27,204 bases of DNA from a virus (UHGV-0165622); one strand, 5' to 3'; positions 3,230-24,929 are shown, numbered from the stretch's first letter. The notes: generated by a model not told the origin, from the letters alone. A program made the numbers and translations.

Positions 3230-3408
3230 GACTGCGGGTGCTTGAGGCTATCTGTCTCAGGCATGAACACCAAAAGGCAGATAGAGAAAAGCCCCAGTTA
3301 ACATTACGCGTCCTGCAAGACGCTTAACATTAATCTGAGGCCATATCTATGCGACACATAGAGATTAGCCTCTTACGGACCGAAAGGTCAAGGAGAAGCA
3401 GGCTATGA
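3230..3408 (+). promoter_or_regulatory. hok mRNA leader with mok-like upstream ORF (3349-3408) and probable antisense Sok target region
   Basis: 20-codon upstream ORF whose TGA overlaps the hok ATG (ctATGAag); inverted repeats in the leader (tatctgtctc / gcagatagag) fit hok/sok fold-back regulation. Confidence 0.4.
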
Positions 3409-3725: not shown

Positions 3726-4376
3726 ATGAATGAAAATCAGTTAGCTCCTTGTTGGGAATTTCAACCTTATCTTGCTGAAAACTATGTTCGCCACTTGTTG
3801 GCGGAGATCGCTAACGTACTTGAGCAGCTGTACTATCATAAGCACGCATTAGACAGCAACTGGTCTGAAGGTGTAAGGGCTTATGATTGGGTCAGAAATC
3901 ATCTTATTCAAAATGAAGATGCAATTCCTGGCCTTGAGATGATTTCCAAGGGGTTGGACTATGTAGTTGCTTTAAATAAAGTTCCGCTACAATTTACCAA
4001 AGATTGCATTAATAACCCCAAAAAGAAACATCGTCTGCGTCGAAATAAAGTAGAGTATGAGCAGCTCTCATTGTTTGGTGATGTTGAGGCTGAGCAAGAT
4101 ATTACATGGCGAGTCATAGCTGAGCCTTTTTTATCCGAAGAGGGCGATGGTGAATTAGAGTCCACACTGCCTCGTTGGGAGGTAGCTCTTGTTGGATTTA
4201 ATACTTATGGTGCTCAGATTAGTATAGTTTCTCATCAATCTACAGCATCGATGCCGCTTATGCCTCTTGATTATAACACACTCCCTGACGAAGCGGAGAT
4301 TAATAAGGTGCCTCTTCGTCGGCGTACGAAGGATAAAGATTTGGATGTGAGCAGTGATGGAACATCAGGTGAATAA
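3726..4376 (+). CDS. Unknown 216-aa protein, upstream partner of the HTH/Zn-peptidase gene (candidate toxin or effector)
   Basis: ORF with no motif I recognise; low-GC codon usage; 3' end overlaps the downstream gene by about 20 nt. Confidence 0.7.
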   Translation: MNENQLAPCWEFQPYLAENYVRHLLAEIANVLEQLYYHKHALDSNWSEGVRAYDWVRNHLIQNEDAIPGLEMISKGLDYVVALNKVPLQFTKDCINNPKKKHRLRRNKVEYEQLSLFGDVEAEQDITWRVIAEPFLSEEGDGELESTLPRWEVALVGFNTYGAQISIVSHQSTASMPLMPLDYNTLPDEAEINKVPLRRRTKDKDLDVSSDGTSGE

Positions 4377-5460
4377 CTTCACTGAGTATCGGGGTGATAA
4401 GCTCAAACTAGCGAGAATGGCTGTTGGGCTTTCTTGTGAAGAGTTAGCCGAAAAAATTGGCAAGACAAAGCAATTCGTTAGCAAACTGGAGAAGGGGTGC
4501 AGGCCATCGGAGCAATGTCTTGAGTTAATATCTTCAGCGCTTATGATTAAGTCCAGTTTTCTTTTTACTGAACGAAAATACGCTCTGGAAAGTGATGTCT
4601 GCCATTTTCGGAGTAAGAAGTCCAGGACTCAAACGCTGACTAATAGTGTATTGGCCAGGGCTGAGATTCTTAATATTATAATTTCTGCTGTTGAAGGTGA
4701 AATCGAATTTCCTGACGTTAACATACCGGAGCACCCAGGGGCTGAATTACTTACTCCGAATGATATTGAGCGAGTGGCAGAAGATTGTCGCCGTGCCTGG
4801 AATTTAGGTCTTGGCCCTATATCATCAATGGTTAAATTGGCGGAGAGTTTAGGGGTAATCGTTGCGCATGTTACGGGAGTCGATGATCGTGTTGATGCTT
4901 TTACTGTTCACAATAACAGGCCTGTTATCATCAGGAACAATGTTAAAAAAAGCATATGTAGATTTCGCTCTGATTTAGGTCATGAATTAGGGCATTTAGT
5001 AATGCATGAGGGCATAACGACAGGTGATAAACTTACGGAATCACAAGCCGATCACTTTTCGAGCGCCTTATTAGTTCCCAGGTTATCTTTCATTAAAGAA
5101 TTTCCACGAATACGAGGTAAGCAATTCGACTGGAATGCTCTGGTTGAATTTAAACTTAGATGGAAAATCAGCCTTAAAATGTGTATTTATCGAGCCAGCG
5201 CATTAGGCTTATTGACCCAGGAACAGGCAAGAACTGGCTATATGCATCTTAATTCCAGAGGGTATACGAGAGTTGAACCTGGTGATGAACTTTTGCGCCC
5301 TGAAGAACCCGGCATGCTGGCCGAGGCGATTGAAATGCTGGATGATGCAACCTGGCTAAGAATTCTTATGAAAACTGGCTTGAGCCAAGATTTAATTCGT
5401 GAGTTGTTCTCCATCAACAGACCTATTACAAATCCAAGAAATATTTTCCAGATTGTTTGA
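4354..5460 (+). CDS. HTH_XRE plus ImmA/IrrE-family (COG2856, M78-like) zinc metallopeptidase fusion protein
   Basis: N-terminal XRE helix-turn-helix (LSCEELAEKIGKTKQFVSKLEKGCRPS); HEXXH zinc motif HELGH at about 4979-4993 with downstream Glu; 368 aa; GTG/ATG start overlapping the upstream gene. Confidence 0.85.
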   Translation: MMEHQVNNFTEYRGDKLKLARMAVGLSCEELAEKIGKTKQFVSKLEKGCRPSEQCLELISSALMIKSSFLFTERKYALESDVCHFRSKKSRTQTLTNSVLARAEILNIIISAVEGEIEFPDVNIPEHPGAELLTPNDIERVAEDCRRAWNLGLGPISSMVKLAESLGVIVAHVTGVDDRVDAFTVHNNRPVIIRNNVKKSICRFRSDLGHELGHLVMHEGITTGDKLTESQADHFSSALLVPRLSFIKEFPRIRGKQFDWNALVEFKLRWKISLKMCIYRASALGLLTQEQARTGYMHLNSRGYTRVEPGDELLRPEEPGMLAEAIEMLDDATWLRILMKTGLSQDLIRELFSINRPITNPRNIFQIV

Positions 5461-5931: not shown

Positions 5932-6210
5932 ATGGCACGCAACGCAAAATATTACAAACATGATAATTCGACCGTTCTTGCCCACACGCACGAGCGGTAT
6001 TCTCACGCATTTAAGTCAGACTGGTACCAGCATCCCCCATGCACTGAAGAACAGGCCGAATGGCTGATTCATAACTACCGCAGACGTGGATATGAGTTTA
6101 GGAAAGCCCTCACCCTCGATTATCGTCACTGGATAATCTACGTCAGACTCCCTTATTCCGAACGCCCACCGCGTCCGTCCCGCACATTCCAGCAACGCAT
6201 CTGGAGGTAA
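5932..6210 (+). CDS. Hypothetical basic protein
   Basis: 92-aa ORF ending 1 nt before the GTG start of the DUF968 gene. Confidence 0.45.
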   Translation: MARNAKYYKHDNSTVLAHTHERYSHAFKSDWYQHPPCTEEQAEWLIHNYRRRGYEFRKALTLDYRHWIIYVRLPYSERPPRPSRTFQQRIWR

Positions 6211-6211
6211 C

Positions 6212-7261
6212 GTGCGGGTATTACTTCGACCTGTTCTGGTACCGGAACTCGGGCTGGTGATCGTTAAGCCGGGCCGTGAATCCATGCCGGTATTCCACAA
6301 TACCCGGGTACTGGTGGAGCCGGAACCGAAAAGCATGCGTAATCTGCCGTCCGGGGTCGTTCCTGCCGTTCGCCAGCCGCTGGCGGAGGATAAATCATTA
6401 CTGCCATTTTTCAGCGACGAACGAGTGATTCGTGCTGCTGGTGGCGCTGGCGCATTGTCTGACTGGTTACTGCGCCATGTTAAATCCTGCCAGTGGCCAC
6501 ACGGCGATTATCACCACAGTGAAACCGTCATTCACCGTTATGGTACCGGCGCAATGGTGTTGTGCTGGCACTGCGACAACCAGCTGCGTGACCAGACATC
6601 CGAATCACTCGAGCAACTTGCTCATCAAAACCTGTCAGCATGGATGATTGACGTCATCGGTCACGCAATAAGCGGTACGCAGGAGCGTGAATTATCTCTG
6701 GCTGAATTATCCTGGTGGGCGGTCCGCAATCAGGTGGCGGACGCGCTACCGGAAGTGGTATTACGTCGTTCGCTGGGGTTGCGTGCGGAAAAAATCCGCT
6801 CAATGTACCGTGAAAGCGACATCGTACCGGGAGAGCAGACCGCCACCAGCATACTGAAACAGCGCACAAAAAATATTGCGCCGCTGCCTCACGCCCACCA
6901 GCAACAGAACCCACCACAGGAAAAGACGGTGGTCAGCATTGCCGTTGATCCTGAGTCTCCGGAATCTTTCATGAAACGACCTAAACGTCGCCGCTGGGTT
7001 AACGAGAAATACAAACGCTGGGTGAAGACACAGCCGTGTGCGTGTTGTGGTAAGCCAGCCGACGATCCCCATCACCTGATTGGTCATGGTCAGGGCGGAA
7101 TGGGGACAAAATCTCACGATATTTTCACGCTACCGCTGTGTCGGGAGCATCACAACGAGCTTCATGCGGATCCTCTGGCGTTCGAACAAAAGCATGGTTC
7201 TCAGGTTGATTTAATTTTTCGTTTTCTTGATCACGCCTTTGCAACTGGCGTGCTTGGGTAA
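6212..7261 (+). CDS. DUF968-family prophage protein (YdfU-like) with C-terminal HNH-like Cys/His motif
   Basis: 349 aa; C-terminus CACCGKPADDPHHLIGHGQGG...LCREHHNELH resembles an HNH motif; position upstream of rusA as in Qin-type prophages. Confidence 0.7.
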   Translation: MRVLLRPVLVPELGLVIVKPGRESMPVFHNTRVLVEPEPKSMRNLPSGVVPAVRQPLAEDKSLLPFFSDERVIRAAGGAGALSDWLLRHVKSCQWPHGDYHHSETVIHRYGTGAMVLCWHCDNQLRDQTSESLEQLAHQNLSAWMIDVIGHAISGTQERELSLAELSWWAVRNQVADALPEVVLRRSLGLRAEKIRSMYRESDIVPGEQTATSILKQRTKNIAPLPHAHQQQNPPQEKTVVSIAVDPESPESFMKRPKRRRWVNEKYKRWVKTQPCACCGKPADDPHHLIGHGQGGMGTKSHDIFTLPLCREHHNELHADPLAFEQKHGSQVDLIFRFLDHAFATGVLG

Positions 7262-7273
7262 AAGAGGTGACTG

Positions 7274-7633
7274 ATGCTCATAGATTTGGTTTTACCTTAC
7301 CCGCCGACGGTGAACACTTACTGGCGACGCCGTGGCAGCACATATTTTATCTCGGAGGAGGGAAAGCGTTATCGCCGGGCTGTGGCGCTTATTGTTCGCC
7401 AGCAGCGGCTGAAATTAAGCCTGTCCGGAAGGCTGGCGATAAAGGTGATTGCAGAGCCACCGGATAAGCGTCGTCGCGACCTGGACAATATCCTGAAAGC
7501 ACCGCTGGATGCGCTGACGCATGCGGGAGTGTTAATGGACGATGAGCAGTTTGATGAAATCAATATTGTAGGTGGTCAGCCAGTATCTGGTGGACGGCTG
7601 GGTGTGAAGATTTACAAAATTGAGAGTGAGTGA
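7274..7633 (+). CDS. rusA: RusA-family Holliday junction resolvase
   Basis: 119 aa; conserved RusA residues (PPTVNTYW, RRRDLDN, DALT..GV..DD) and AAAGAGG Shine-Dalgarno. Confidence 0.85.
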   Translation: MLIDLVLPYPPTVNTYWRRRGSTYFISEEGKRYRRAVALIVRQQRLKLSLSGRLAIKVIAEPPDKRRRDLDNILKAPLDALTHAGVLMDDEQFDEINIVGGQPVSGGRLGVKIYKIESE

Positions 7634-8196
7634 GCGTAAATATGATATATCCGGAAATTACAGGCAAAAGCGGCGAGCATTTACGTCTAAAAACGCTGGA
7701 AGCAGTCTGGATCCAGGGGAAATTACGGATGTGGGGGCGGTGGTCGTATATTGGCGGCGGTAAGACGGGAAATATGTTCAACCAATTACTGACCTCTAAA
7801 AAGCTGACAAAAACGGCAATTAACGAGGCGCTCCGGAGGATGAAAAAAGCTGGTCTGGACAAACCTGAACTTGAGGCTTTTTTGCGGGATATGATCAACG
7901 GCAATCAAAAAAGCTGGCTGGCACATTGTACCGATTCAGAGGCGTTAATAATCGACAGGGTTATTGGTGAAGTCCTGGCAGGCTATCCCGGGCTGCTCAA
8001 TGTCCTGAGTCAGCGTTATGTGGGGCGGGGGATGACTAAGCGCAAAATGGCTGAACTGCTGAATGATGCACACCCGGAATGGAGTTTAAGAACCTGTGAA
8101 AGACGCATTGAGCATTGGCTAAAGGTGGCAGAATTTATTTTGTACAAACCAATGGTTATGGCTTTTGGTATAGAGAAAAAAGTTATTGCTTTTTGA
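7630..8196 (+). CDS. Putative late-gene antiterminator Q-like protein
   Basis: 188-aa ORF in the canonical Q position (after rusA, before the tR'-like terminator and lysis region); loose similarity to phage-21/DLP12-type Q from memory. Confidence 0.55.
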   Translation: MSVNMIYPEITGKSGEHLRLKTLEAVWIQGKLRMWGRWSYIGGGKTGNMFNQLLTSKKLTKTAINEALRRMKKAGLDKPELEAFLRDMINGNQKSWLAHCTDSEALIIDRVIGEVLAGYPGLLNVLSQRYVGRGMTKRKMAELLNDAHPEWSLRTCERRIEHWLKVAEFILYKPMVMAFGIEKKVIAF

Positions 8197-8272
8197 CGTA
8201 AAAACTGCTTCAATTCCGGTACGCTTCGCAAAGCTGTACCACGAGGCGAATAGCAGACATGGACATTTGAAA

Positions 8273-8298
8273 GAGCCCGCTTTTTGCGGGTTTTTTTA
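8273..8298 (+). terminator. tR'-like intrinsic terminator downstream of Q
   Basis: Hairpin agcccgc-ttttt-gcggg followed by a T7 run, placed as lambda tR' is. Confidence 0.55.
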
Positions 8299-8420
8299 TG
8301 CCTGAAAAACGGCACAGAACATTAAACGCGCTGGTGGTTGCGAATACCGGTCTTTCAGCTTGCTGGCTTTTCCGACAAGAGTTATTGGTATGTTACGTTA
8401 ACCAGAAAAGGGAAAAAGAC

Positions 8421-8618
8421 ATGCTAAAACAGCAGGATATGACCGAAACCGCCAGAGTGGTGTTTAATGAGTTAAGCGTCACCGAACCGGCGACAGTCGG
8501 GGAGATTGCACAGAATACTTACCTTTCACGCGAACGCTGCCAGTTAATACTGACCCAGCTTGTTATGGCGGGTCTGGCAGACTATCAGTTTGGTTGTTAC
8601 AGACACCTTCAGTCCTGA
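8421..8618 (+). CDS. Small putative winged-helix DNA-binding protein
   Basis: 65 aa; HTH-like segment TVGEIAQNTYLSRERCQLILTQLVMAGL; followed by hairpin ccttcag-tcc-tgaagg and a T-run. Confidence 0.4.
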   Translation: MLKQQDMTETARVVFNELSVTEPATVGEIAQNTYLSRERCQLILTQLVMAGLADYQFGCYRHLQS

Positions 8619-8987
8619 AGGCTTTTTTATTTGTGGTAAATGGGCGGCTGGTGGGTGTGGTGGTTGTTGCTTTCCCGTTGCTGAAAAAGAAAACGCCAGA
8701 CTGTTAGCCGGGTATCAGTTATCTGGAGAAATTTTTAAATACCTCACAATTCAGGCGGTTGACTGTTGTCTGGTTTGCGGGGAGTTTGTTAAAAGAAACT
8801 GGCATGGTGAATCCCCCTGTGCGGAGGGGCAATCAGCGAGTAGGTATATGGGATAATCGCGGATTCAGGTGCTGGTACTGAATTCACCGGGAGGCACCCG
8901 GCACCATGCAATGGCACATAGCGCCACTCTCCAGCCCCTCTCCGGAGGGGCTGTTTATATTGATTTTGTCAGATGTGAGTAAACTCC

Positions 8988-9323
8988 TTATGGACTTTGT
9001 TGTTTTAGTCCATAAGGACATATTTGCAGAGTGCAACGGTTATTAAAGCATTCATTCAATACGTTATCTGTATTTGTAGGACATTCCTGGCTGTTTTTGA
9101 TTAAATTCCAGAATGTTTTATTGAATGGTACTACGTTGTAAATGGTTAAAGGTAGCACTTTGTTATTGAGCATGATACCTGTGTGAGTCAGTGTAAATAT
9201 ACTTTCAGGAGGTAAGAAAGCATCCGATTGATACCAGATTATTAATTTTATTTTACTCCATATGACTGAAAAAGATATTCCGCATGATGGCTGGATAACT
9301 GTATCAATCACAATCCACTTCAT
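8988..9323 (-). CDS. Hypothetical Cys-containing protein in an AT-rich island, opposite strand to the late operon
   Basis: 111-aa ORF; good Shine-Dalgarno (AAGGAAA) upstream of the ATG on the minus strand; AT-rich composition unlike flanking phage genes; an 11-bp perfect inverted repeat (ccttatggact/agtccataagg) lies at its 3' end. Confidence 0.5.
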
Positions 9324-9568
9324 TTAGTTTCCTTGTTTATGTCTTGCTGGTGATGTTCTGAAAAGTATAAATGATATTTTTGAATGTAAACCATAGAGCA
9401 GAATTATTTTTCTGATGTTGTTTATTGTTTATTTAAATGCAGGGTGGTTTATATCTCGTCTTGTAGTTTATCCATGCATATCTGCTTGATGATGAGGTTT
9501 TTATTTAAGGTATGGTTTTGTGTTTTTTCTGTATTACATGTCAGGTATTTTAAAGAATTATTTTTCAG

Positions 9569-11545
9569 ATGGTGGAAAGAACCATGGCATTTAAACACTA
9601 TGATGTTGTCAGGGCGGCATCGCCGTCAGACCTTGCGAAACGACTGACACAAAAACTGAAGGAGGGGTGGCAGCCATTTGGCAGTCCGGTGGCCATCACG
9701 CCTTATACCCTGATGCAGGCCATTGCGGCGGAAGGTGATGTCACCACACCTGTGGTGGTGAAGCCGTCGGATGGAGAAGGCGCAGTTATCAGCACCACCA
9801 GCAACCCGGAGTATTACTTTGTTGTTGCCCTGGCCGGGCAGTCAAACGGTATGGCGTATGGTGAAGGGCTTCCGCTGCCGGAGACATATGACCGTCCGGA
9901 CCCGCGTATTAAACAGCTGGCGCGTCGCAGCACTGTCACGCCGGGTGGTGCGTCCTGTAACTACAATGACATTATTCCTGCGGACCACTGCCTGCATGAT
10001 GTTCAGGATTTGAGTAAGTTTTCACACCCGAAAGCCAGCGCAGCTCAGTATGGATGCGTGGGGCAGGGATTACATATCGCGAAGAAATTGTTGCCGTTTA
10101 TTCCGGCGAATGCCGGTATTCTTCTGGTTCCGTGCTGCCGTGGTGGTTCTGCATTTTTGGCGGGCGATGAAGGTACCTTCAGCGAATCCACCGGCGCAAG
10201 CGAGACCTCGGCACGCTGGGGTGTTGATAAGCCACTGTACAAGGACCTGCTTACCCGTACTCAGGCCGCACTGAAGGCCAACCCTAAAAATATTCTGCTT
10301 GCAGTGGTCTGGATGCAGGGCGAGTTTGATTTGAAACAGGGTGCATACGCCACTCAGCCGGGGCTGTTTGATTCCATGGTGGAAAAATATCGTTCTGACC
10401 TGTCGGAATTCGGAGGTCAGTGTCTCGGGGGCTCTCCGTCATCGGTTCCCTGGATTTGTGGCGACACGACCTACTACTGGAAGCAGACTTATTCTTCGCA
10501 ATACGATGCGGTGTATGGTGCATACAAGACGAAATCCGCAAAAAAAATCTTCTTTGTGCCGTTTATGACGGATGAAAACGGGCGAAATGTGGGTACCAAC
10601 GAGCCGTCAGAAGATCCGGATGTTGCGGATATTGGGTATTACGGAGCCGGTGGTCGAACGGACGCCAAAACCTGGACGACGGCCGACCGTAAAACGCATT
10701 TTGGATCATGGGCACGTCGTGGGATTATTTCCGACCGTCTGGCAACGGCGATTCTTGTGCATGCCGGGAGAAACGCTGAATTCATTACCGGAAAACAGCC
10801 TGATACGGTGAAGCCCACCGGACCTTCCGGTGAAGGTACGGAGAGAGAGCCGGAAGCCCCGGTCAGTAACCGAACCCTGATGAGTCTGCTGGCGTCCGGC
10901 GAAGACCTGGCATCACAGGGCTGGCGCTATTATCACAAACCGGCGAGCGGAGACAATGTTAACAAAAACATTGCTGAAGCGGTGGTCAGTGATGCGGGGG
11001 CTACGGGAGGTAAGGCCCTGCAACTGAATAAACCGGAAAACCACATCTGGTTTCTGGAGCATGATGCAGCCGGACAGGGAGTGGAGTTACTGAAGAAGGG
11101 GGGACGTGTGAGCGTACGGTTTAAGTTGCCGGGTTCACTGGTGCCGAATCAGTTTGCCCTGGGCATTTACTGGCAGTTGTCGTCCCTGCCGGAGGGAGTG
11201 ACGCTGGCAGAGGAAGGCAACGACATGCTGATGTCCTTCTTCCTGCAGACGGATGCGACGAACCTGAACGCGATGCACCACAAGAAGCCGAATGCGAAGC
11301 TGGATACGTTCGGGGTCTTTGATAACGGATGGCACACACTGGCTTTTGAGTTTGCCGGAAACAACAGCATTCAGGTGACGCCGGTACTGGATGAGAAACG
11401 GGGGACGCCGTTCACACTGGTGAAATCTCCGGCATCAGGGGCGGCGGACAAACTGCAACTGACAGGCATATCAAAGGCGGCGACATATACGCTGCTGATT
11501 GACAGTGTGAAGGTGGAAGTGAACAACGCGGACATCGCGGCATGA
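9569..11545 (+). CDS. nanS-p: Prophage sialate O-acetylesterase NanS-p-type protein (N-terminal DUF1737, SGNH/GQSN esterase core)
   Basis: 658 aa; N-terminus MAFKHYDVVRAASPSDLAKRL; esterase motif ALAGQSNGMAYGEG; sits where Stx phages carry the homologous gene between stx and the lysis cassette. Confidence 0.8.
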   Translation: MVERTMAFKHYDVVRAASPSDLAKRLTQKLKEGWQPFGSPVAITPYTLMQAIAAEGDVTTPVVVKPSDGEGAVISTTSNPEYYFVVALAGQSNGMAYGEGLPLPETYDRPDPRIKQLARRSTVTPGGASCNYNDIIPADHCLHDVQDLSKFSHPKASAAQYGCVGQGLHIAKKLLPFIPANAGILLVPCCRGGSAFLAGDEGTFSESTGASETSARWGVDKPLYKDLLTRTQAALKANPKNILLAVVWMQGEFDLKQGAYATQPGLFDSMVEKYRSDLSEFGGQCLGGSPSSVPWICGDTTYYWKQTYSSQYDAVYGAYKTKSAKKIFFVPFMTDENGRNVGTNEPSEDPDVADIGYYGAGGRTDAKTWTTADRKTHFGSWARRGIISDRLATAILVHAGRNAEFITGKQPDTVKPTGPSGEGTEREPEAPVSNRTLMSLLASGEDLASQGWRYYHKPASGDNVNKNIAEAVVSDAGATGGKALQLNKPENHIWFLEHDAAGQGVELLKKGGRVSVRFKLPGSLVPNQFALGIYWQLSSLPEGVTLAEEGNDMLMSFFLQTDATNLNAMHHKKPNAKLDTFGVFDNGWHTLAFEFAGNNSIQVTPVLDEKRGTPFTLVKSPASGAADKLQLTGISKAATYTLLIDSVKVEVNNADIAA

Positions 11546-11901
11546 TAAAAAAAGCCGCCAGCGGTAGGAATGGAAGCTGGCGGAGGTAATCCCAATGGAG
11601 AATGTAAAGAAAAGATGCTTTCGACATCAATCATTTCTAAATGAAAACAGTTCTCATTGTCAACCATAACGGTAAGAAATTATGACATTTATTCATCAGG
11701 TAATGCTGTACTTCTGTATGGCAGTCTGTGTTATGTATCTTCTTTCGGGTGGGTACAGGGCAGTGCGCGATTTCTGGCGCAGGCAGATTGATAAAAGGGC
11801 CGCTGAGAGAATCAGCGCCAGTCAGTCAGCCGGAAGCAAACCCGAAGATCCGCTCATTCCGTAGTCACTTTCTTGACAACACCTTTCAACGAGAAAATCC
11901 C

Positions 11902-12147
11902 ATGTCAGAAATCACATCCCTGGTCACTGCTGAGGCAGTGAAGGAAGTCCTGCGCTCTGAAGAAGTCCTGAGCGCACTGAAACAGAAACTCCGCCAGAAC
12001 CTTGAGTCGCGTCTTGATGCAGAAGTGGATGCCATTCTGGATGAGCTGCTGGGCGTACCAGCGGTTCCGGAGCCGGAAGGTATCGCGGGTGACGGGAGTG
12101 CTTCAGATGGCGGTGAACCCACACCTGACAGCGACATGATGATGTAA
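11902..12147 (+). CDS. Hypothetical acidic protein upstream of the holin
   Basis: 82-aa [25 protein letters not shown]... Confidence 0.45.
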
Positions 12148-12223
12148 GCCTGCGCAAGGGACCATCGGTGTGTGCCGGTGGTCTTTATATTGTTGTGAGC
12201 TTCCGGATAACGGGAGACGGGGT

Positions 12224-12439
12224 ATGTACCAGATGGAAAAAATCACAACAGGTGTGTCATACACCACGTCAGCGGTGGGAACGGGCTACTGGTTCCTGCA
12301 GTTGCTGGACAGGGTTTCCCCGTCTCAGTGGGCGGCAATAGGCGTGCTGGGGAGTCTGCTGTTTGGGCTGCTGACGTACCTGACTAACCTGTATTTCAAA
12401 ATCAAAGAGGACCGGCGTAAGGCGGCGCGGGGAGAGTAA
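12224..12439 (+). CDS. Holin (class II, dual-start MYQM), Stx-phage S type
   Basis: 71 aa; two hydrophobic helices, charged C-terminus [13 protein letters not shown]; dual Met start; GGGAGACGGGG Shine-Dalgarno. Confidence 0.85.
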
Positions 12440-12440
12440 A

Positions 12441-13334
12441 GTGATGAATAAAAAATATGAACTGGTTGTTAAGGGGATAAATAATTACGGGGATAAGGTT
12501 ACTGTTACTGTGAAGCCGGAAGGTGACGGGCAAGCGTCGCTGTTGTTGCCAGATGTGGCGATTAGTCTTGACCGTACTGAAGGTGCCACGCTGGAGTTTT
12601 ACGAAGCTGAGGCGAAAAAGCAGGCGAAGCAGTTTTTCATGGATGTTGCTGCCGGGTTATGTGAATGGAACGAACCGTTGCCGGAAAAGCGCCCCGTAAT
12701 TTTAGAGGCGCAGGATGTGTTGATAACCTACAAAGGAAAGCTACCGGGAAGAATTACTTGTTCTCTGAAGATGCCGCCGTCAACACTGCGGTCAGAAAAA
12801 GATGATGTTGAATCACGTATTGAAAAACTGGAGAGCTACGTCGTTGAGCTGAATAAGAAATGGTCGATATTGGTGCCTTCTGGCGATGAAAAGCAGTTTG
12901 CTGCGTTTGACGATTATTGTCGGAAAGTGATGAGCAGAAATCTCGCAGAGTGTTTCAGTATTCATAATGATAATTTCAGTGACCCGGAATGGGAGTGTAA
13001 CCGGCCATCCTTTGTTGTATCCGGTGATGCTGGGAAAATAACCATCTCAGAAAATGGGAAAGTAACACCTCCATCGCACCAGCACAGTGAGGAGCTCATT
13101 GAATTTGCCATTGATTACCTGAAGAACAATAAAAAGCAGGGGCTGATGAAGCGCGTTGGCCGTTGCATGGGATATCTTCAGGTAGCCGCTGAGATTGAAG
13201 CGCTGGCCAGTGGTGCTGATAAGGATGCAATTGTGCGGGAGGCTCTTCTTCGTGATTTTAATACTCCACCCTTTAAAAAAGTGCCGGCTTACTGGCTTCA
13301 TCCGGGGCTGACTTATCTTAAAGTGCGTATTTAG
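12441..13334 (+). CDS. Unknown 297-aa protein inserted between holin and endolysin
   Basis: ORF starts 2 nt after the holin stop with GGGGAGAG Shine-Dalgarno and ends 36 nt before the endolysin; no recognisable domain; lower GC than neighbours. Confidence 0.7.
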   Translation: MMNKKYELVVKGINNYGDKVTVTVKPEGDGQASLLLPDVAISLDRTEGATLEFYEAEAKKQAKQFFMDVAAGLCEWNEPLPEKRPVILEAQDVLITYKGKLPGRITCSLKMPPSTLRSEKDDVESRIEKLESYVVELNKKWSILVPSGDEKQFAAFDDYCRKVMSRNLAECFSIHNDNFSDPEWECNRPSFVVSGDAGKITISENGKVTPPSHQHSEELIEFAIDYLKNNKKQGLMKRVGRCMGYLQVAAEIEALASGADKDAIVREALLRDFNTPPFKKVPAYWLHPGLTYLKVRI

Positions 13335-14859: not shown

Positions 14860-15169
14860 GTTTTGTTGATGCGCCGTATCGTCGCTATATTCCCTCATTA
14901 ACAGAGACCGCAGCCCGACAGGGAGACTCCTCTGCGCGAGTGTGCGGGGATAATTAAAAACGATGCACACCGGGTTTTTACCGCGTTAATGATTCGCGGG
15001 TTTATCCCGGTGCGATGGTGGAAGAAACAGGAAGCTGTATTACAGAAAGTGCTACTACTGTATCCCGATGCGATGTATGTAATGTGAGTCAGATAATGGC
15101 ACAGGATGTGGTGATGTGGCAGTCTGGAACACAGGATATATTGTCAGAATAAGACCCGTAGGAATAAAA

Positions 15170-15496
15170 ATGAAAAGACGCCTTTTACTACTTTTTCTGT
15201 TATCTGTCCTGGCAGTGGGATGCTCGCAGCAAAAAGCTGATGAGCCCCGGCAATTAGTGACGGTGTATCCACGATATCCGGAATATGCTGCAGCAAATTA
15301 TATCAAGGGGCTGGTTGAGGTTAAGTTCGATATTGGTGCTGATGGGACTGTGACACGGATCGTTTTTCTCCGCTCAGAGCCTCATAATTTGTTTCGTGAT
15401 GAAGTGGTGAAGGCCATGGCGAAATGGCGATTTGAAAAGAATCGCCCCTGTCAGGGAGTGAAGAGACAATTTATCTTTACGCCGTCACGTCCTTGA
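15170..15496 (+). CDS. Lipoprotein with TonB C-terminal-like domain (moron in the bor slot)
   Basis: 108 aa; signal peptide with lipobox LAVGC; YPRYPEYAAANYIKGLVEVKFDIGADGTV resembles the TonB C-terminal domain; Shine-Dalgarno AGGA upstream. Confidence 0.6.
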   Translation: MKRRLLLLFLLSVLAVGCSQQKADEPRQLVTVYPRYPEYAAANYIKGLVEVKFDIGADGTVTRIVFLRSEPHNLFRDEVVKAMAKWRFEKNRPCQGVKRQFIFTPSRP

Positions 15497-24034: not shown

Positions 24035-24380
24035 TTTTCAGAATGCCTTTGATGCCGCCCTTGCCGGGGTGGACAGTACGATTGTTGAAGTGATGGGGAT
24101 CCGTGCGCAGTTCACCTCCGGAGCACAACGTGGCGGCGAAGTTCAGGGGGTTTTTGACGATCCGGAGTCGCTGGGTTTTGCCGGTGGCGGGGTCCGTATT
24201 GAAGGAAGCAGCCCGTCATTATTTGTGCGGACGGATACGGTGCGTGCCGTGCGGCGTGGTGACACGCTGACCATTAACGGCGAGATGTTCTGGGTGGATC
24301 GTGTTTCTCCGGATGACGGGGGAAGCTGTTATCTCTGGCTCAACCGTGGGCAACCACCCGCTGTTAACCGGCGACGATAA
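24027..24380 (+). CDS. Head-tail connector protein (lambda FII-like)
   Basis: 117 aa; GVFDDPE, GVRIEGSSPSLFVRTD, FWVDRVSPDDGGSC.LWL.RG.PPAVNRRR parallel lambda FII. Confidence 0.85.
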   Translation: MRDFQNAFDAALAGVDSTIVEVMGIRAQFTSGAQRGGEVQGVFDDPESLGFAGGGVRIEGSSPSLFVRTDTVRAVRRGDTLTINGEMFWVDRVSPDDGGSCYLWLNRGQPPAVNRRR

Positions 24381-24395
24381 ACGCAGGGGGAAATT

Positions 24396-24929
24396 ATGGC
24401 GATAAAAGGGCTTGATCAGGCGATTGATAATCTGAGCCGGGTTCGTAAAAACGCCATTCCGGCGGCTTCAGCAATGACGATTAACCGCGTGGCCACAACG
24501 GCGATTAATCAGTCTTCATCACAGGTTGCCCGGGAGACAAAGGTACGCCGGAAACTGGTTAAGGAACGGTCCAGACTGAAACGGGCGACGGTCAGAAATC
24601 CGAACGCAAAAATTATCGTTAACCGCGGTGATCTTCCAGTGATTAAGCTGGGGATCAGGATGCTGGGCCGTCGTCCGAACAGCATACTTAAAGCCGGTCA
24701 GCATCGGTATCAGCGGGCATTCATTCAGCGATTAAAAAACGGTCGCTGGCATGTCATGCAGCGTGTGGCCGGGAAAAACCGTTACCCTATTGATGTGGTG
24801 AAAATCCCGATGGCGGCCCCACTGAAACAGGCGTTTGATGAGAATGTTGACCGTATCCGGCGTGAACGCCTGCCCGGAGAACTGGCATCCGCGCTGAAAC
24901 AACAACTGAGGATTGCGATAAAACGATGA
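24396..24929 (+). CDS. Tail completion protein (lambda gpZ-like)
   Basis: 177 aa; MAIKGL.QA..NLSR, QVARETKVRRKLVKER.RLKRATV, NGRWHVMQRVAGKNRYPIDVVKIPMA parallel lambda Z. Confidence 0.9.
   Translation: MAIKGLDQAIDNLSRVRKNAIPAASAMTINRVATTAINQSSSQVARETKVRRKLVKERSRLKRATVRNPNAKIIVNRGDLPVIKLGIRMLGRRPNSILKAGQHRYQRAFIQRLKNGRWHVMQRVAGKNRYPIDVVKIPMAAPLKQAFDENVDRIRRERLPGELASALKQQLRIAIKR

Follow-up and report, generated by a model that had tools for sequence, protein, structure and literature searches.

What does a lambdoid prophage carry at the position in which Shiga toxin (Stx) phages hold their tRNA genes and stxAB? We addressed this question for UHGV-0165622, a stretch of viral DNA of 27,204 nucleotides (nt), here called the window. 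The slot under study, at 8300-9568, lies between a Q-like late antiterminator gene and a nanS-p-type sialate O-acetylesterase gene in what is a lambdoid Escherichia coli prophage. An earlier note described this slot as a moron hotspot that lacks stx and tRNA genes and carries different cargo instead. The slot does coincide with a moron site known to lie downstream of PR' (Tree et al. 2014, PMC4104026). In our analysis it is very probably a minimal, cassette-free PR'-proximal moron slot, in which two conserved flank modules are joined directly. The left flank (8268-8658) would consist of a tR'-like terminator past a Q21-related Q gene, a gene for a winged-helix-like protein of 65 amino acids (aa) and a weak terminator. 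The right flank (8647-9568) would consist of a truncated DUF3927 open reading frame (ORF), an STnc100-family small RNA (sRNA) gene and iraL, the latter convergent with the sRNA gene. The variable cargo found elsewhere (methylase, tRNAs, stxAB, TerB and helix-turn-helix (HTH) genes) is missing here; its place would be between the two flanks.

The absence of stx and of tRNA genes was confirmed by all searches. Between the Q-like gene and the esterase gene there was no stxA or stxB and there were no tRNA genes, so the locus did not qualify as an Stx-converting toxin locus. ARAGORN found no tRNA in the whole window, and Rfam gave no tRNA match at E ≤ 1 over 7000-12500 or at the gathering score window-wide. 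Translated searches (tblastn) of the whole window with Stx2A, Stx2B and the phage methylase gave chance-level matches only (best E 0.24-1.0), the sole match inside the slot being 16 aa long (E 4.6). Sensitive blastn (word size 7) with the methylase-tRNA-stx2AB module of an Stx2a phage gave no match to the interval, and sensitive blastn with the IS200-tRNA interval of strain CFT073 gave no match to the slot. The earlier note had proposed remnants of stx promoter or tRNA sequences as a means to tell loss from replacement. Remnants of stx, tRNA or methylase genes were not found by tblastn or word-7 blastn, and the sequence gives no sign that stx was formerly present.

The notion that different cargo stands in place of stx was not supported on comparison with other loci. 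In the Stx2a phage Stx2_EH1910 (LC567834), Q is followed by the same small ORF (94% nt identity), a methylase gene, three tRNA genes, stx2AB, STnc100 (75 nt past stx2B), an iraM-like gene on the minus strand and the esterase gene. The order in the Stx2c phage 2851 (FM180578) is Q, three tRNA genes, stx2cAB, STnc100, the iraM-like gene and the esterase gene. Like the window, both phages have STnc100, which lies right past stx2B, and a convergent iraM-family gene before the esterase gene, but they differ from it in having tRNA genes and stx2AB between the flanks and, in Stx2_EH1910, the methylase gene too. The IraM-like proteins of the two phages are 69-73% identical to IraL of the window, and the right-flank DNA of Stx2_EH1910 is 69% identical. 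An IraL/IraM homologue occurs in 46 phage records, of which at least 32 bear the name of an Stx2-converting phage. Because Stx phages carry the same elements alongside stx, the contents of the slot are not substitutes for stx: the small ORF, STnc100 and the iraM-family gene are conserved flanks of the moron slot. What was found is a conserved backbone rather than variable cargo, and its elements are widespread.

Loci without stx gave the same picture of flanks with variable genes between them. UTI89 has the small ORF, a methylase gene, three tRNA genes, two STnc100 copies and a truncated esterase gene. A non-stx O157:H7 prophage, with Q as in the window, has the small ORF, an HTH gene, two tRNA genes, TerB, DUF3927, STnc100 and the esterase gene. 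CFT073 has another Q, IS200, three tRNA genes, DUF3927, STnc100, iraL and a truncated esterase gene. STnc100 also lies beside the esterase gene or its remnant in Stx2a_EH1910, 2851, UTI89, CFT073, PhiR5_1 and the O157 prophage, and among 5426 complete E. coli genomes, 1424 have the STnc100-iraL block (at least 80% of the query covered).

These comparisons bear directly on the explanation that the slot holds alternative moron cargo (the HTH gene and the AT-rich gene) gained in an independent replacement event instead of a tRNA-stx cassette and conferring different lysogenic-conversion functions. The anatomy of iraL is that of a classic moron: it is AT-rich (GC about 0.32), has its own promoter and is directed against late transcription. 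Some Stx phages, such as those of the 933W type, presumably run from stx2B straight to the esterase gene without iraM, which we also count for this explanation. However, the small ORF, STnc100 and the iraM-family gene are found alongside stx in Stx2a and Stx2c phages, which places them outside the cassette position, and the cassette position itself is vacant here. The explanation is therefore largely refuted, and we consider it highly unlikely.

The position of the cassette could be placed from the outer limits of the two flank modules. Directly past the Q gene of the Stx2a phage LC567834, the left module is 94.1% identical to that of the window; in the non-stx O157:H7 prophage the identity is 91.7%, unbroken from DUF968 to 8663. 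The module occurs 3' of four different Q genes (567, 822, 381 and 690 nt), and the Q-plus-small-ORF block is at least 80% covered in 722 of the 5426 genomes. What the window has in common with Stx2a phages and with the O157 prophage stops at 8658-8663, as the left module does in three contexts other than the window, and in the alignment the Stx2a phage departs past 8658 into its methylase region. Similarity to CFT073 starts at about 8647 and continues at 96.9% identity over 8647-9741 (blastn). The junction at the resulting 12-nt microhomology cuts DUF3927. The remnant scored 29.9 bits and matched profile positions 31-53 of 53 only, short of a full-length domain; near-full-length DUF3927 lies directly 5' of STnc100 in CFT073 (profile positions 6-53) and in the O157 prophage (2-50).

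A 241-nt query spanning the junction was at least 80% covered, indicating an intact junction, in 201 of the 5426 genomes and in the isolated phage PhiR5_1. Any match to the query was found in 2827 genomes, and in those sampled from the remainder the match ends or begins at 8649-8658. Since the matches break at this point, we take 8658/8659 to be the cassette position, which is vacant in the window.

Breakpoints recur where the small-ORF module ends (8658-8663). Five different continuations were seen past it in the compared loci: a methylase gene; an HTH gene; a methylase gene and tRNA genes without stx; a kinase/phosphatase context; and the DUF3927 remnant.

The junction favours recombination between a prophage with the Q/small-ORF module and a CFT073-like iraL prophage over recent excision of stx, because DUF3927 is truncated, the identity of the right flank is 97% to a non-stx prophage but only 69% to the Stx2a phage compared, and no remnants are present. 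The joint would thus have arisen by recombination or deletion between two such prophages, with no exchange of stx for cargo. A recent Stx2-phage derivative would have lost methylase-tRNA-stx2AB by a clean deletion from the small-ORF module to the region 5' of STnc100. The left flank, with 94-98% identity to Stx2a phages as far as the edge of the cassette, and the gene order on either side, which is that of Stx2a_EH1910, are as such a deletion would leave them, and a preprint on Pas sRNAs raises repeated stx loss from prophages as one possibility (10.64898/2026.05.13.724894). Such a loss is nevertheless highly unlikely, given that the STnc100-iraL-esterase flank resembles the non-stx CFT073 prophage and not the compared Stx2a phage, that the Q gene type differs from that of the latter, that the Stx2a and Stx2c phages examined have no annotated or detected DUF3927 ORF at this site, and that no stx, tRNA or methylase remnant was found.

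The features of the slot and of its surroundings are collected in the table. Those listed in the earlier note are all present, at about the coordinates that it gave: the flanking genes are as it had assumed, the AT-rich minus-strand gene is real (GC is 0.30-0.34 across 9000-9600 versus 0.45-0.58 in the flanks), the small HTH-like ORF exists, and the several hairpins of the note correspond to the tR'-like terminator, the stem at the small-ORF stop codon, the sRNA stems and terminator, and the hairpin at the end of iraL.

Features of the slot and of the neighbouring genes, with positions in the window
Feature	Position	Strand	Remarks
DUF968 gene	6212-7261		5' of RusA gene
RusA gene	7274-7633		5' of Q-like gene
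Q-like late antiterminator gene, 188 aa	7630-8196	+	Upstream slot boundary; Pfam, phrog_753
Intrinsic terminator, tR'-like	8268-8298	+	Stem CCCGC/GCGGG with A/U extension, U7 run; about 75 nt past Q stop
Conserved left-flank module	8286-8658	+	3' terminator half, small ORF and its terminator; from the comparisons in the text
65-aa winged-helix-like protein gene (small ORF)	8421-8618	+	First ORF past terminator; phrog_331
Weak hairpin and U-run at small-ORF stop codon	8606-8627 (stem 8606-8621)	+	Terminator scan
DUF3927 3' remnant	8633-8707	+	C-terminal ~22 codons; Pfam DUF3927
Junction microhomology GCTGGTGGGTGT, 12 nt	8647-8658	.	Left and right flanks overlap here
STnc100-family sRNA gene	8773-8962 (Rfam coordinates)	+	RF02076
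sRNA terminator	8932-8953		9-bp GC-rich stem, then T-rich tail
Perfect 12-bp hairpin at iraL last codons and stop	8985-9018	-	Inverted repeat, 100% complementary
iraL, IraM-family RssB anti-adaptor gene, 111 aa	8988-9323	-	The AT-rich minus-strand gene
iraL 5' untranslated region and promoter	9324-9400	-	Start 9356; sigma-70 promoter (-10 TATACT, -35 region TTTACA); CFT073 5'-RACE mapping
nanS-p-type sialate O-acetylesterase gene, 658 aa	9569-11545	+	Downstream slot boundary; DUF1737 + SASA + DUF6645; phrog_143
DUF1378 ORF	11682-11864
DUF826 ORF	within 11728-12147

A close relative of the window is the prophage of ATCC 25922 (NZ_CP009072.1), which is 98.7% identical in one piece to 6010-13000 and has the same order: DUF968, RusA, DUF1133-type Q, small ORF, DUF3927 remnant, IraM-family gene and esterase gene. 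At the site of the remnant PGAP annotates a 24-aa 'DUF3927 family protein' in this strain, and it leaves the sRNA unannotated. The stretch 7630-9700 is at least 80% covered in 68 complete E. coli genomes (ATCC 25922 and 67 more). Each element of the slot has been annotated or described in print before, and this standard reference strain shows the same arrangement. The iraL locus of the CFT073 potB prophage (Hryckowian et al. 2014, PMC4045071) is alike in its DUF3927-type ORF, STnc100 and the DUF1737 start of the esterase gene. It differs in a Q type of 822 nt, IS200, three tRNA genes, a near-full-length DUF3927 and a truncated esterase gene, whereas the window has the small winged-HTH module, no tRNA genes, a truncated DUF3927 and an intact esterase gene of 658 aa.

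Two other readings of the junction region concern its coding content. A 98-aa ORF at 8560-8856 had no family match and overlaps both the DUF3927 remnant and the sRNA gene; it was rejected as spurious. In phage JLK-2012 (JQ347801.1), 24338-24598, equivalent to 8649-8910 of the window, is annotated as 'TciB-like inhibition of cell division or resistance to colicin'. This label covers the 3' end of DUF3927 and the 5' half of STnc100. The 98-aa ORF of the window corresponds to the ORF so labelled, and calling it a gene is probably an annotation error caused by the sRNA beneath it.

By its sequence, the minus-strand gene is a member of the IraM/IraL family. Its product is identical to CFT073 IraL at 110 of 111 positions, 59.5% identical to K-12 IraM and 69% identical to the IraM-like protein of the Stx2a phage, and it scored 161.4 bits (cutoff 121) against NCBIfam NF007393, 'anti-adapter protein IraM'. 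The CFT073 iraL sequence obtained by 5'-RACE maps to 9356-9325 with two mismatches, both in the untranslated region, and the 88 nt upstream of the iraL start, including the -10 TATACT, are identical to CFT073 at 87 positions. The earlier note had suggested expression under Q-dependent late transcription or from the cargo's own promoters; for own promoters this agrees with iraL, which accounts for only part of the content. The hairpin at the last codons and stop of iraL (-17.5 kcal/mol, z -6.0) would form the 3'-end structure of the iraL mRNA.

In CFT073, IraL binds RssB and stabilises RpoS in log phase, as seen in two-hybrid, pull-down and half-life assays (PMC4045071). Loss of iraL there lowered the log-phase RpoS half-life from ~5 to ~2.5 min. 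It prevents delivery of RpoS to ClpXP and so raises RpoS in growing cells (PMC4045071). Given the 99% identity, IraL of the window would be expected to bind RssB and stabilise RpoS likewise.

Phage 2851 contains an unannotated IraM-family ORF at 24233-24562 (FM180578.1; 6501-6830 of our locus L009), 72.7% identical to IraL of the window, between stx2B and the esterase gene. Unannotated IraM-family ORFs lie between these two genes in many other Stx2c and Stx2a phage records as well.

The sRNA gene matched RF02076 over the full length of the model (positions 1-206) with 132.4 bits (gathering score 47, E 6e-30). Folded from 8802, the RNA had a minimum free energy of -69.5 kcal/mol (z -3.0), and its multibranch helix was closed by the 5' GCAUGGUG. 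The 5' end of PasD2 of enteropathogenic E. coli (EPEC), estimated from RNA-seq (GCATGGTGAATCC), aligns with 8802, and a TTT-TTAAAA block just 5' of this position is invariant across all aligned copies. The start of the sRNA was placed near 8802 on two grounds, the invariant TTAAAA box and where PasD2 begins; the RNA probably ends at the terminator 8932-8953 and its U-tract, and is probably about 160 nt long and transcribed from its own promoter. A TTGACT at 8760 was rejected as its -35 element, as there is no -10 element at a distance of 16-19 nt.

The RNA resembles STnc100/EcOnc27/sRNA103 and PasD in its multibranch fold, its Rho-independent terminator and its site 5' of the esterase region. 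Identity with PasD itself was rejected: the alignment covers no more than the initial ~40 nt (78.6%, E 0.001), and the 3' half, including the seed UGUGAG, differs. Copies of STnc100 are transcribed in EDL933, one of them confirmed by Northern analysis (PMC5331693), and EcOnc27 crosslinks to Hfq (PMC7873438). In enterohaemorrhagic E. coli (EHEC), STnc100/EcOnc27/sRNA103 lies directly 3' of stx2B (PMC12711010, PMC12370729), at a distance of 75 nt (PMC12370729). The moron site downstream of PR' is bookended by Hfq-binding sRNAs (PMC4104026, PMC7873438). In the window, the convergent partner of the sRNA gene is iraL; the AsxR and AgvB anti-sRNAs (RF02702, RF02703) were not matched opposite STnc100 in the Rfam searches described above for tRNAs.

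In phage vB_EcoS-640R1 (locus L001, 3124-3317 and 3593-3781) and in the UTI89 prophage (locus L010, 6154-6344 and 6622-6831), the slot contains two STnc100 copies in tandem that have diverged.

The small ORF is a real gene. It belongs to phrog_331 (E 5.5e-37), has a Shine-Dalgarno-like AAGGGA 8 nt 5' of its ATG, and its family comprises 334 protein clusters at E ≤ 1e-3; the best 120 of these are 78-100% identical and come from Escherichia, Shigella, Salmonella, Klebsiella, Citrobacter and Buttiauxella. Aligned homologues (n = 17) are 79-94% identical to the window protein, and the differences from the Stx2a-phage copy, counted by eye in the alignment, are six synonymous and three non-synonymous. 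A 106-aa reading from the ATG at 8298 is less likely: it would start inside the T-run of the terminator, without a Shine-Dalgarno sequence, and the proteins of other genera have lengths of 63-69 aa.

Many homologues of the small protein are named 'TrmB family transcriptional regulator' by NCBI; against Pfam TrmB it scored 18 bits (E 0.003), under the cutoff of 25.6. The AlphaFold model (predicted local distance difference test 71) has three helices and a short wing. The leading Foldseek matches were mostly winged-helix domains, all at E ≥ 0.69 and none significant, and profile and sequence searches of the PDB gave nothing relevant or significant. The hairpin at its stop codon is weak (-6.8 kcal/mol, z -1.6). 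In Stx2_EH1910, UTI89 and strain 503025, a DNA methyltransferase gene follows the small ORF by about 150 nt, an arrangement that recalls a controller-protein/methylase pair.

Upstream, the Q-like gene matched Pfam DUF1133 (352 bits) and Phage_antitermQ (32.6 bits, cutoff 26) as well as phrog_753, 'anti-termination protein Q-like' (E 1.6e-80), and there was a distant match to the solved Q21 structure (6p18, E 7e-4). It lies 3' of DUF968 and RusA, an order shared by the other lambdoid prophages that we examined. By family and position it belongs to the Q21-like phage Q antiterminators, and antitermination is its predicted activity. The terminator past it folds stably as RNA (-18.2 kcal/mol, z -5.1), and an equivalent GCGGG-T7 hairpin lies equally far past the Q genes of two other types, in Stx2a_EH1910 and CFT073. 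From its position the terminator is the likely tR'. For PR', no consensus sigma-70 site was found on the plus strand between the Q stop and the terminator, and by eye there was no well-spaced pair of hexamers.

Taken together, these elements suggest how the slot would work. In the lysogen, iraL would be transcribed from its own sigma-70 promoter, counter to late transcription, as extrapolated from CFT073. By analogy with that strain, where the effect was demonstrated, IraL would sequester RssB and RpoS would rise. The STnc100-family sRNA, with a presumed promoter of its own and a conserved -10-like box, would act in trans, probably together with Hfq, if it behaves like its relatives. Such relatives are Hfq-bound in EHEC (PMC7873438) and in EPEC. 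The small ORF and the esterase gene, lying behind terminators at 8268-8298, 8606-8627 and 8932-8953, would be expressed mainly after Q has modified RNA polymerase at PR', and this late transcription would traverse iraL antisense. The slot would thus supply the lysogen with an RpoS stabiliser and a trans-acting sRNA, both independent of prophage induction.

Some points weigh against this account. The scan for consensus sigma-70 promoters on the plus strand found none for PR' or for the sRNA. Expression of the sRNA and of iraL in this strain is projected from relatives. The U-tract of the sRNA (UGUUUAUAUU) is poorer than that of the Stx2a copy, which may mean weaker Hfq binding or termination. 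Neither family nor fold searches gave a significant score for the small ORF as a winged-helix protein. The few loci compared do not prove the direction of the recombination, which could have been a deletion within one prophage or an exchange between two.

A more far-reaching proposal is that the PR'-proximal slot is an RpoS-tuning island, in which the 65-aa protein couples Q-dependent transcription to the cassette, the sRNA or iraL, and in which 8647-8658 is a preferred site of cassette exchange and not a chance microhomology. The small ORF is the first gene past tR' behind at least four Q gene variants, the PR'-tR' transcript StxS of Stx phages activates rpoS translation (PMC7873438), and iraM and iraL stabilise RpoS. 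We regard this proposal as a long shot.

The esterase gene that closes the slot is syntenic with those of the Stx2a phage, phage 2851, E2348/69 and O157 prophages. It is intact in the window, annotated as frameshifted in ATCC 25922 (locus L006, 7970-9932) and cut down to its DUF1737 part in CFT073 and UTI89. It is followed by DUF1378 and DUF826 ORFs and genes for an S21-type holin, lysozyme and Rz. A PasA/PasC-like sRNA was sought between the esterase and holin genes (11546-12169) and none was found, the DUF1378 and DUF826 ORFs being there instead; PasA/PasC sRNAs occupy this gap in EPEC and EHEC prophages, unlike the window.

Further features lie at a distance from the slot. Between hok/sok and DUF968, within the nin region, there are two ORFs (3726-5460, plus strand) that overlap and resemble the anti-phage defence pair Rosmer: a 216-aa ORF matches RmrT (E 4.6e-25) and a 368-aa ORF with HTH_3 and Peptidase_M78 domains matches RmrA (E 6e-105). 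At 3236-3407 (plus strand), Rfam identified a sok antitoxin RNA (106.7 bits), implying a hok/sok type I toxin-antitoxin system 5' of the Rosmer pair. Past the lysis genes, a 126-aa ORF at 15116-15496 (plus strand) has a TonB C-terminal domain; it is called 'TonB family protein' in ATCC 25922.

The result leaves current understanding unchanged. The joint of the flanks at 8647-8658 offers a clean 'empty-site' reference for bounding stx, tRNA and methylase cassettes in lambdoid prophages. Besides an STnc100-family sRNA, the lysogen has iraL, a gene that in uropathogenic strains raises RpoS during log phase, and the genes found where stx 'should' be are the conserved scaffold around the toxin cassette, not substitutes for the toxin.

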